A stretch of 64,000 nucleotides of DNA from Escherichia coli (lineage in GTDB: Bacteria > Pseudomonadota > Gammaproteobacteria > Enterobacterales > Enterobacteriaceae). The notes below the pieces were generated by a model. The model was given only the letters and a program-made list of their open reading frames with translations. It did no database searches and was not told where the DNA came from. The stretch is from NCBI RefSeq assembly GCF_013315695.1, contig NZ_CP054353.1; one strand, given 5' to 3'. Each line of letters begins with the position of its first letter. Position 1 is the stretch's first letter. Shown here one piece after another: positions 16,126-18,054 of the stretch. Both the position numbers and the translations under genes were made by a program.

Positions 16126-17277
16126 ATGTCACTTGTCACCGATCTACCCGCCATTTTCGATCAGTTCTCTGAAGCTCGCCAGAAAGGCTTTCTCACCGTC
16201 ATGGATCTCAAGGAGCGCGGCATTCCGCTGGTTGGCACTTACTGCACCTTTATGCCGCAAGAGATCCCGATGGCAGCCGGTGCGGTTGTGGTTTCGCTCT
16301 GTTCCACCTCTGATGAAACCATTGAAGAAGCGGAGAAAGATCTGCCGCGCAACCTCTGCCCGCTGATTAAAAGTAGCTACGGCTTCGGCAAAACCGATAA
16401 ATGCCCCTACTTCTACTTTTCGGATCTGGTGGTCGGTGAAACCACCTGCGACGGCAAAAAGAAAATGTATGAATACATGGCGGAGTTTAAGCCCGTTCAT
16501 GTGATGCAACTGCCAAACAGCGTTAAGGACGATGCCTCGCGTGCATTATGGAAAGCCGAGATGCTGCGCTTGCAAAAAACGGTAGAAGAACGTTTTGGGC
16601 ACGAGATTAGCGAAGATGCTCTGCGCGATGCCATTGCGCTGAAAAACCGCGAACGTCGCGCACTGGCCAACTTTTATCATTTGGGGCAGTTAAATCCTCC
16701 AGCGCTTAGCGGCAGCGACATTCTGAAAGTAGTCTACGGCGCAACCTTCCGGTTCGATAAAGAGGCGTTGATCAATGAACTGGATGCAATGACCGCCCGC
16801 GTTCGTCAGCAGTGGGAAGAAGGCCAGCGACTGGACCTGCGCCCACGTATTTTAATCACCGGCTGCCCAATTGGCGGCGCAGCAGAGAAAGTGGTGCGCG
16901 CGATTGAAGAGAATGGCGGCTGGGTTGTCGGTTATGAAAACTGCACCGGGGCGAAAGCCACCGAGCAATGCGTGGCGGAAACGGGTGATGTGTACGACGC
17001 GCTGGCGGATAAATATCTGGCGATTGGCTGCTCCTGTGTTTCGCCGAACGATCAGCGCCTGCAAATGCTCAGCCAGATGGTTGAAGAATATCAGGTCGAT
17101 GGCGTAGTTGATGTGATTTTGCAGGCGTGCCATACCTACGCGGTGGAATCGCTGGCGATTAAACGTCATGTGCGCCAGCAGCACAACATTCCTTATATCG
17201 CTATTGAAACAGACTACTCCACCTCGGATGTCGGGCAGCTCAGCACCCGTGTCGCGGCCTTTATTGAGATGCTGTAA
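16126..17277 (+). CDS. yjiM: 2-hydroxyacyl-CoA dehydratase-like protein YjiM
   Basis: 383 aa from MSLVTDL; immediately followed by the activator-ATPase-like yjiL. Confidence 0.85.
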   Translation: MSLVTDLPAIFDQFSEARQKGFLTVMDLKERGIPLVGTYCTFMPQEIPMAAGAVVVSLCSTSDETIEEAEKDLPRNLCPLIKSSYGFGKTDKCPYFYFSDLVVGETTCDGKKKMYEYMAEFKPVHVMQLPNSVKDDASRALWKAEMLRLQKTVEERFGHEISEDALRDAIALKNRERRALANFYHLGQLNPPALSGSDILKVVYGATFRFDKEALINELDAMTARVRQQWEEGQRLDLRPRILITGCPIGGAAEKVVRAIEENGGWVVGYENCTGAKATEQCVAETGDVYDALADKYLAIGCSCVSPNDQRLQMLSQMVEEYQVDGVVDVILQACHTYAVESLAIKRHVRQQHNIPYIAIETDYSTSDVGQLSTRVAAFIEML

Positions 17278-17286
17278 GGAGTGGCA

Positions 17287-18054
17287 GTGACATATTCGAT
17301 TGGCATTGATTCCGGCTCAACCGCCACCAAAGGGATCTTACTGGCTGACGGCGTGATTACGCGCCGTTTCCTCGTTCCAACACCCTTTCGCCCGGCAACA
17401 GCAATTACTGAAGCCTGGGAAACTCTGCGCGAAGGGTTAGAGACAACGCCGTTTCTGACGCTCACCGGCTACGGACGGCAACTGGTGGATTTTGCCGATA
17501 AACAAGTGACGGAAATCTCCTGTCACGGGCTGGGCGCACGGTTTCTTGAGCCAGCAACGCGCGCGGTAATCGACATCGGTGGTCAGGACAGCAAAGTGAT
17601 TCAGCTTGATGATGACGGTAACCTGTGCGATTTCCTGATGAATGACAAATGCGCGGCGGGCACCGGGCGTTTCCTGGAGGTGATCTCGCGCACGCTTGGC
17701 ACCAGCGTCGAGCAACTCGACAGCATTACCGAAAATGTCATACCGCACGCCATCACGAGTATGTGCACAGTGTTTGCTGAATCAGAAGTGATCAGCCTGC
17801 GCTCTGCGGGCGTAGCGCCAGAAGCGATTCTCGCCGGAGTGATTAACGCGATGGCGCGGCGGAGCGCCAATTTCATTGCTCGTCTCTCCTGTGAAGCGCC
17901 GATTCTGTTTACTGGTGGCGTTAGCCACTGTCAAAGGTTTACCCACATGCTGGAAAGCCATCTGGGAATGCCGGTACAAACTCACCCTGATGCGCAATTC
18001 GCTGGTGCAATTGGCGCGGCGGTGATCGGTCAGCGGCAGAGAAAACGCGCATGA
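17287..18054 (+). CDS. yjiL: BadF/BadG/BcrA/BcrD-type ATPase YjiL (dehydratase activator-like)
   Basis: N-terminal IGIDSGSTATKG sugar-kinase/HSP70-fold motif; probable GTG start at 17287 (255 aa) with an upstream aggag. Confidence 0.85.
   Translation: MTYSIGIDSGSTATKGILLADGVITRRFLVPTPFRPATAITEAWETLREGLETTPFLTLTGYGRQLVDFADKQVTEISCHGLGARFLEPATRAVIDIGGQDSKVIQLDDDGNLCDFLMNDKCAAGTGRFLEVISRTLGTSVEQLDSITENVIPHAITSMCTVFAESEVISLRSAGVAPEAILAGVINAMARRSANFIARLSCEAPILFTGGVSHCQRFTHMLESHLGMPVQTHPDAQFAGAIGAAVIGQRQRKRA

Follow-up and report, generated by a model that had tools for sequence, protein, structure and literature searches.

What the neighbouring genes yjiM and yjiL of Escherichia coli encode, and on what kind of substrate their products might act, is the question raised by positions 16126-18054 of the 64,000-nucleotide stretch of E. 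coli DNA that was analysed here (contig NZ_CP054353.1; hereafter the window). According to the listing of open reading frames (ORFs), these positions correspond exactly to the two genes. yjiM (16126..17277, + strand) starts with ATG and encodes a protein of 383 residues, by family a double-cubane-cluster ([8Fe-9S]) protein (DCCP) with the HGD-D fold. yjiL (17287..18054, + strand) encodes 255 residues from the RefSeq start, or 257 residues from an alternative GTG start at 17281 on the same strand, and its product is an activator- or "archerase"-type ATPase that by family serves as electron donor. A preliminary description, made from the sequence alone, had compared YjiM to the catalytic component of 2-hydroxyacyl-coenzyme A (CoA) dehydratases and considered the substrate to be unknown. 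For the enzyme itself we favor another interpretation, which we consider about 75% probable, namely that yjiM, yjiL and the downstream gene ytiA are the form taken in E. coli by a DCCP-type reductase that has two components, is driven by ATP, works at low potential and is made under anaerobic conditions.

The placement of YjiM depends on the level at which the family is resolved. The match to the Pfam domain HGD-D (PF06050; 1.6e-121) resolves the superfamily only. At the finer level, the NCBIfam equivalog for double-cubane anaerobic reductases, NF040772, is matched with 531.3 bits against a cut-off of 350 and over the entire profile (1-372 of 372), whereas the scores against the HadB, HadC, BzdN and BcrB/C equivalogs are all far under their cut-offs (HadC, 95.6 bits against 700; BzdN, 79 against 454; BcrC, 59 against 421; HadB, 19.6 against 750). 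The closest sequences in the PDB are likewise those of DCCPs (6eno and 7yyl, at 8e-75), followed by BzdN, MbdN and HadC at 1e-13 to 1e-19. An AlphaFold2 model of YjiM, built on 49 diverse homologs and with a mean pLDDT of 95.3, had the DCCP structures 7yzm_A, 6eno and 7yyl as its top matches in Foldseek (TM-scores of 0.90-0.93, root-mean-square deviations of 1.5-1.7 Å). The best of these was 7yzm_A (TM-score 0.93, 1.6 Å, 37% identity), while HadC and BzdN were matched with TM-scores of 0.88 and 0.85 at identities of 20-22%.

The Pfam match and the model thus both place the dehydratase-superfamily fold in YjiM, and to this extent the comparison made in the preliminary description is sound. The HGD-D fold alone does not make YjiM a dehydratase, however, and the likeness does not extend below the superfamily: the match to NF040772, the six ligand cysteines described below and the lack of a second subunit gene in the window place the protein elsewhere. 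A search of the 64-kb window with YjiM in tBLASTN found yjiM alone and no second HGD-D gene, as would be expected if the enzyme is a homodimer and not a dehydratase of alpha and beta subunits. Judged from the profiles and the modelled structure, YjiM belongs to the DCCP branch of the HGD-D superfamily and is predicted to be a reductase, not a 2-hydroxyacyl-CoA dehydratase. It has been named as a putative class II DCCP, a class that has the seven-cysteine motif and lacks the helices that close the substrate channel (PMC7317905). In agreement with this, its N-terminus is about 36 residues shorter than that of the Carboxydothermus DCCP (residue 26 of YjiM aligns with residue 62), and its substrate is therefore probably bigger than molecules of the size of acetylene.

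Conserved candidate ligands for the iron-sulfur cluster, which the preliminary description had proposed to look for, are found in YjiM. The protein has 11 cysteines. Among the 49 representatives, which are 29-49% identical to YjiM, Cys78, Cys108, Cys302 and Cys335 are invariant, Cys40 and Cys273 occur in 48 and Cys59 in 44. In orthologs of 53-96% identity, these seven residues and Cys93 are each present in 77 of 77 sequences. The conserved cysteines line up with those of 6ENO and include the equivalents of the six DCCP ligands, as numbered second-hand via a review, as well as the seventh cysteine of the motif given there, with DCCP Cys94 corresponding to YjiM Cys59 (PMC7317905). The literal seven-cysteine expression from the same review finds no match in YjiM, because the spacers in the E. 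coli protein (C-18-C-18-C-29-C-164-C-28-C-32-C) are 1-4 residues shorter; by alignment, the cysteines are the same. Three cysteines suffice for a [4Fe-4S] site of the kind found in HadB, HadC and BzdO, for which the second cysteine triad of YjiM would be superfluous.

The identification of YjiL as an ATPase of the BadF/BcrAD type was correct. The protein matches Pfam BcrAD_BadFG at 6.8e-75 (252.5 bits, cut-off 31.5) and TIGR00241 with 357.9 bits (cut-off 125.4), and is a full-length member of this family, and its matches in the PDB are the activators HgdC (1hux, 1e-52), HadI (2e-51) and MbdQ, and DCCP-R (7yyl_E, 5e-47). The motif previously quoted for it, IGIDSGSTATKG, represents residues 7-18 of the 257-residue ORF. 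In the same numbering, Cys124 and Cys162 align with Cys127 and Cys166 of HgdC, which we take to be the ligands of the [4Fe-4S] cluster between the subunits in 1HUX. The preliminary description had added that such ATPases deliver an activating electron in related systems. YjiL is indeed of the activator type, but in the solved DCCP system the ATPase uses ATP to drive the reduction of the substrate rather than the one-electron priming of a dehydratase (PMC7317905).

When genomes were scanned with the alignment of the family, orthologs of YjiM (53-96% identity) were identified at 80 loci, of which 76 were used for the counting of neighbors within 10 kb (68 non-proteobacterial and 8 proteobacterial loci); ORFs were called and clustered, and recurring clusters were labelled by NCBIfam or Pfam. 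The hosts belong to the Enterobacterales, Aeromonas, many Clostridia and Lachnospiraceae, Enterococcus, Listeria and the Eggerthellaceae. A comparison of neighborhoods had been proposed in the preliminary description, and it shows that the pairing recurs, with an activator gene directly beside yjiM in 45 of the 76 loci, and that genes for selenium and sulfur metabolism are present in a part of them. There are also proteins in which activator and DCCP are fused (P0146, P0162 and P0213). Adjacency and fusions support a functional coupling of YjiL to its DCCP partner. A protein of 722 residues (P0122) was at first suspected to be a fusion of YjiM, YjiL and DUF3343 and turned out to combine YjiM with a PucR-type helix-turn-helix domain.

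The most informative neighbor of the pair is ytiA (18051..18308, + strand), which the preliminary description left out. Its product of 85 residues matches the Pfam domain DUF3343 (PF11823; 5e-14, 52 bits, cut-off 25) and is a putative selenium or sulfur carrier. The start codon of ytiA overlaps the stop codon of yjiL by 4 bp (ATGA), an arrangement that leads to translational coupling, and ytiA follows yjiL in six of the eight proteobacterial loci. In the Proteobacteria the conserved core is thus yjiM-yjiL-ytiA, and elsewhere yjiM-yjiL with or without DUF3343, which was counted in 11 of the 68 non-proteobacterial loci (17 overall, including six from Proteobacteria). Six of the non-enteric DUF3343 members were confirmed as PF11823, and the sole invariant cysteine among 18 aligned members is Cys41 of YtiA. 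DUF3343 proteins have been proposed to be chaperones for selenium or sulfur, and in Slackia STRING links DUF3343 to activase and HgdB-like genes located beside selABD and yedEF (PMC5322559).

By analogy with the complex of DCCP and DCCP-R from Carboxydothermus, the E. coli system may work as follows. A homodimer of YjiL would hold one [4Fe-4S] cluster between its subunits by means of Cys124 and Cys162, take up an electron from ferredoxin or flavodoxin, bind ATP and dock on a homodimer of YjiM. The hydrolysis of ATP would then push the electron uphill into the [8Fe-9S] cluster of YjiM, held by Cys40, Cys78 and Cys108 together with Cys273, Cys302 and Cys335, and with Cys59 located beside it. The substrate would be reduced at the double cubane, with ATP being consumed alongside turnover, and YtiA would most likely act as a carrier that brings a compound of sulfur or selenium to the enzyme or takes one away from it.

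The hypothesis of a link to selenium is based on the genes that recur near the orthologs. Among the 68 non-proteobacterial loci, a class-V aminotransferase of the selenocysteine-lyase-like family TIGR01977 was found in 12, YedF (TIGR03527) in nine, SelD in five and MocA in four, and sets of corrinoid methyltransferase genes (MtaA-like, corrinoid protein and RACE; type I mlp) in 11. The aminotransferase had initially been counted in 24 loci, a number that was reduced to 12 by direct BLASTP with a selenocysteine-lyase-like representative; the original cluster included three enteric ORFs of 470 residues that failed this comparison. These may correspond to the K-12 regulator/aminotransferase YjiR, which they fit in size and position.

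In four Firmicutes loci (L020, L022, L039 and L082), YqeC, YqeB, YedF and SelD are encoded near YjiM and YjiL, within approximately 9 kb on either side of an ortholog at about 10001-11150, and three of these (L020, L022 and L039) additionally contain MocA and a gene for an XdhA-like molybdenum hydroxylase. The order in L020 and L039 is YqeC-YqeB-YedF-SelD-YjiM-YjiL-MocA, with XdhC and the XdhA-like gene downstream, which is the gene set of the selenium-dependent molybdenum hydroxylase trait. In eight other loci (L042, L043, L050, L052, L061, L077, L079 and L081), the ortholog adjoins MtaA-like genes in multiple copies, a corrinoid protein and a RACE-type corrinoid activase. Type I mlp clusters have been assigned to the metabolism of methyl-selenide and methyl-sulfur compounds, with DCCP and DCCP-R drawn inside the cluster (mlp preprint, 2023).

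Any of these selenium and sulfur contexts was observed in 23 of the 68 non-proteobacterial loci (34%) if the corrinoid clusters are included and in 16 of 68 if they are not. As a rough expectation, if a point is chosen at random in a genome of 3 Mb, a single-copy gene should fall within 10 kb on either side of it in less than 1% of cases. The recurring neighbors, as read from gene order, support the published, putative link of the YjiM clade to selenium. This association had been noted earlier (Lin, 2015; Haft, 2022; mlp preprint), and 955 of 970 proteins assigned to NF040772 are encoded in genomes that also encode SelD (Haft preprint). Our search of the literature to mid-2026 found no experimental test of this link. 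For two more distant DCCPs (P0123 and P0175), the recovered contigs are only 3-4 kb long.

The redox couple of elemental selenium and hydrogen selenide is very negative, around -0.7 V, which would make an ATP-driven reductase a reasonable catalyst for the formation of selenide. The physiological role that we would prefer for the E. coli system, although it is speculative and rather doubtful, is the reductive mobilization of selenium, or sulfur, via Cys41 of YtiA, yielding selenide for SelD. The selenium mobilized by YjiM, YjiL and YtiA might be elemental, carrier-bound or organic, or else the double cubane itself might incorporate selenium (Haft), and we regard this broader proposal too as tentative and more likely wrong than right. 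If the selenium hypothesis were true, it would provide E. coli with a missing step in selenium assimilation and the DCCP family with its first physiological function; the biological function of the homodimeric DCCPs was stated to be unknown in a recent study of BzdNO (PMC11971306). Within the DCCP family, the yjiM-yjiL-ytiA system of E. coli is the one most easily studied by genetics, and the neighborhood data point to experiments on selenium and sulfur.

Several observations weigh against the interpretation presented here, in its biochemical as well as its physiological part. The type of cluster, the oligomeric state and the ATP-coupled electron transfer in YjiM and YjiL are all taken over from homologs of about 37% identity, and in 29 of the 76 loci the ORF calls did not reveal an activator gene adjoining yjiM, which is in part explained by truncated contigs. 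The double cubane of BzdN acts as an electron store and not as the active site (PMC11971306), and the cluster in YjiM need thus not be catalytic. The link to selenium is one of guilt by association in 16 of 68 loci (23 of 68 with the corrinoid clusters), and within E. coli only ytiA provides it: neither SelD, YedF, a selenocysteine-lyase-like protein nor YqeB/YqeC is encoded near yjiM-yjiL-ytiA in the window. Furthermore, DUF3343 has no selenium-specific subfamily (PMC5322559), and a CoA ester was considered as a possible substrate of YjiM by Jeoung and Dobbek (PMC7317905).

The latter suggestion leads to the question of whether YjiM might after all act on an organic substrate. A DCCP-type reductase of a CoA ester or some other organic compound without a chalcogen, for example a derivative of an unsaturated or aromatic acid in the gut, with YtiA as an incidental neighbor, would fit the evidence for DCCP membership, and BzdNO provides a precedent for a double-cubane subunit that works in the reduction of CoA esters (PMC11971306). 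The YjiM homolog with a PucR-type domain (P0122) also hints at catabolic regulation, unless the join is an artefact of gene calling. We nevertheless think that such a substrate is unlikely, since it is the selenium and sulfur trafficking genes that recur near the orthologs and not those of CoA metabolism, and since ytiA has kept its position behind yjiL, to which it is coupled in translation, in the Enterobacterales. The same absence speaks against a genuine 2-hydroxyacyl-CoA dehydratase, in which a single electron from YjiL would enable many non-redox dehydrations of CoA thioesters: genes for CoA-transferases, CoA-ligases and acyl-CoA dehydrogenases are neither found among the E. coli neighbors nor recurrent in the 76 ortholog loci. 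Membership in HGD-D, the fold similarity to HadC and the best PDB matches of YjiL, to HgdC and HadI, are what this explanation has in its favor. The low scores against HadC and HadB, the six conserved cluster cysteines where three would be expected and the absence from the window of a gene for an alpha subunit that could pair with YjiM make it quite improbable.

A third possibility is that the two proteins form a promiscuous reductase or detoxifier of small molecules resembling acetylene, azide or hydrazine that belongs to no dedicated pathway, in line with what the Carboxydothermus enzyme does in vitro. The activities measured for any DCCP are indeed confined to the reduction of small molecules, among them acetylene and hydrazine (PMC7317905; PMC11971306; Haft preprint), and the expression of the operon is anaerobic. 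YjiM lacks the N-terminal extension that makes the channel narrow, however, and its identity of 86-89% across enterobacterial genera, together with eight cysteines that are invariant down to 53% identity, argues for a specific and conserved role. The recurring selenium and sulfur context also speaks against this explanation, which we rate as rather improbable. Still another proposal, which draws on the adjacency and common direction of mdtM, yjiN, yjiM and yjiL, is that YjiM and YjiL assist MdtM and YjiN in a membrane transport process, such as the uptake of proline-rich antimicrobial peptides by a "yjiL-mdtM cluster." According to secondary literature, Krizsan et al. described in 2015 an accessory role of MdtM and YjiL in the uptake of oncocin, Bac7 and Tur1A. 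Since mdtM (one locus) and yjiN (five loci) are linked to yjiM in some Enterobacterales only, and since nothing in the fold is transport-like, we consider a transport role highly improbable. The interpretation of YjiM and YjiL as an ATP-driven reductase of the DCCP type is thus the one that we retain.

The genes themselves are ordinary, intact core genes of E. coli that are correctly named by RefSeq. YjiM is identical to its K-12 counterpart at 380 of 383 residues (99%) and YjiL at 243 of 254 (96%), and the ORF list, megablast and the identity to K-12 all confirm that the coordinates in the preliminary description were right to the base. With megablast, the 4.5 kb around the two genes were found in 5,390 of 5,426 complete E. 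coli genomes, with a coverage of at least 80% in 4,801. Several genomes match this 4.5-kb stretch at 100%, and the genes annotated in it are yjiN, yjiM, yjiL, ytiA and yjiK. RefSeq refers to YjiM as a "double-cubane-cluster-containing anaerobic reductase" and to YjiL as the "putative 2-hydroxyacyl-CoA dehydratase activator YjiL," and a 2020 review gives YjiM as an example of class II (PMC7317905). The identities are thus already public and the genes are known.

The neighbors of the pair in E. coli are mdtM, yjiN, ytiA, yjiK, yjiJ and kptA. The seven genes from mdtM to yjiJ (13457-20479) are all co-directional, starting with mdtM (13457..14689, + strand), which codes for an efflux pump of the major facilitator superfamily according to the RefSeq annotation of an identical stretch. 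It is followed by yjiN (14730..16010, + strand), which encodes a DUF445 membrane protein (Pfam, 8.4e-119) and ends 115 bp before yjiM. The other gaps in the array measure 40 bp (mdtM-yjiN), 9 bp (yjiM-yjiL), -4 bp (yjiL-ytiA), 64 bp (ytiA-yjiK) and 67 bp (yjiK-yjiJ).

The pair had been described as located with yjiN and mdtM inside an inverted block, and this is borne out by BLASTN against K-12 MG1655. Positions 13186-25440 align in reverse to positions 18791..6537 of the K-12 locus (L002), from the region upstream of mdtM through the region upstream of ytiC, while the flanks at 5735-11243 (gntP-uxuR) and 28405-39659 (yjiA-opgB) align forward. The inverted segment spans 13.7 kb in all (13186..26855), from mdtM to the N-terminal half of yjiC, and carries a later IS1 insertion at 25441-26208. 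It is bounded on the left by an IS1 copy that abuts the region upstream of mdtM (12419..13185, + strand) and on the right by a 100% identical copy in the opposite orientation (26856..27622, - strand). The yjiC gene (DUF2686) has been split into a C-terminal fragment outside the inversion (12009..12418, - strand) and an N-terminal fragment with its upstream region inside it (26209..26855, + strand). Its target duplication is divided as well, since the flanking 10-mer CCTCAACAGG at one IS1 copy is the reverse complement of CCTGTTGAGG at the other.

Such split and reverse-complemented flanks are the signature of an inversion mediated by IS1. Homologous recombination between inverted IS1 copies or a one-step intramolecular transposition would both produce it, and the identity of the two copies favors a recent event. 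The junction of IS1 and mdtM alone is present in 449 complete genomes, and the junction yjiC-IS1-mdtM that marks the inversion in two of the 5,426, which makes the inversion rare. It represents a separate, lineage-specific IS1 event, in which the operon, its neighbors and the proximal control region have been left intact, and it should be of use for strain typing rather than for understanding what the operon does. In all, IS1 is present four times in a region of 16 kb (11244-12008, 12419-13185, 25441-26208 and 26856-27622). The copies at 11244-12008 and 25441-26208 are variants of 91% identity whose 9-bp target duplications, ATATAATTC and CAAATTCCA, are intact. NZ_OZ547117.1, the closest genome among the matches listed, has the inversion too but lacks the copy at 25441-26208, so that the strain analysed here has one IS1 more.

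It was further claimed that the inversion gives the pair a transcriptional context that differs from that in K-12. The orientation relative to the flanking chromosome has changed, and from the K-12 map we infer a shift from head-on to co-directional with replication. Locally, however, the claim is overstated. The inversion ends on the far side of mdtM, upstream of yjiM and more than 2.9 kb away from it, and 271 bp of the native DNA upstream of mdtM have been kept. The two genes are listed as an operon of their own that is directly activated by FNR (Myers et al., 2013, PMC3688515), and they are induced as oxygen is depleted (PMC2241611). With a distant breakpoint, an intact array and control by FNR, the pair retains essentially the local transcriptional context that it has in K-12.

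A scan for promoters and terminators at 13100-20600 gave fewer promoter-like sites than in shuffled sequence and none in the spacer between yjiN and yjiM, and we therefore make no claim about operon boundaries. No site with the FNR consensus was found in this 115-bp spacer. The nearest FNR-like match, TTTATCCGTGTCAA (15912-15925), is a half-palindrome with two mismatches that precedes the start of yjiM by about 200 bp and falls within the 3' end of yjiN. Such matches occur at chance frequency, and the evidence for control by FNR is thus that of the literature cited above. The Rfam scan of the whole window revealed no RNA family near yjiM and yjiL. A promoter-like site at 13173-13202 (+ strand) faces mdtM, with the -35 element TTGGCA in the terminal repeat of IS1 and the -10 element in native DNA; this is a consensus match only, and the site could be a hybrid promoter common to the 449 genomes with the IS1-mdtM junction.

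Other parts of the window also differ from K-12. The "immigration control region" of K-12 (rpnD, yjiR/S/T/V, mcrBC, symE/R, hsdRMS and mrr; about 19 kb, L002 18791-37910) is absent and has been replaced, between IS1 and yjiA at 27623-28404, by a frameshifted brnT toxin gene and the antitoxin gene brnA, as annotated in the closest RefSeq record. At 35326-36519, an element of about 1.2 kb replaces lgoR between lgoT and lgoD; the same record identifies it as an IS5-like ISKpn26 transposase. Rfam detected four tandem tRNA genes (46743-47184, - strand) and naRNA4 (CssrE; 54975-55053, + strand), which are unrelated to yjiM and yjiL.

How does the E. coli system compare with those already known? The (R)-2-hydroxyisocaproyl-CoA dehydratase HadBC with HadI (3O3M, 4EHT) and the 2-hydroxyglutaryl-CoA dehydratase HgdAB with HgdC (1HUX) share the superfamily fold with YjiM and the type of activator ATPase with YjiL. 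They are heterodimers of paralogous subunits, in each of which three cysteines hold one [4Fe-4S] cluster, they use CoA esters as substrates and they are activated catalytically by one electron, whereas YjiM is encoded by one gene, has six ligand cysteines, shows 20% identity to these proteins and scores far under their family cut-offs. The class I benzoyl-CoA reductase BzdNO/BzdPQ (8S02) and MbdONPQ (9GAI) have an ATPase homologous to YjiL, and BzdN too contains an [8Fe-9S] double cubane (PMC11971306). These enzymes are heterotetrameric, and their double cubane stores electrons for a separate catalytic subunit, BzdO, with a [4Fe-4S]-OH2 cluster. YjiM has no partner resembling BzdO and is 22% identical to BzdN.

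At the level of gene sets, the selenium-trafficking genes (SelD, YedE/YedF, selenocysteine lyase, DUF3343 and YqeB/YqeC) and the type I mlp clusters host YjiM orthologs in a minority of Firmicutes genomes. The nearest counterpart with a solved structure is the DCCP/DCCP-R system of Carboxydothermus hydrogenoformans (CHY_0487/CHY_0488; 6ENO, 7YYL and 7YZM), which like YjiM belongs to NF040772 and is 37-38% identical to it. All six of its ligand cysteines and the seventh are also present in YjiM, and it too has an adjacent archerase-type ATPase with two bridging cysteines. The E. coli protein differs from it in that it lacks the N-terminal helices that narrow the substrate channel, as is typical of class II (PMC7317905), in that the spacers between its cysteines are shorter, and in that it has a coupled partner of the DUF3343 family.

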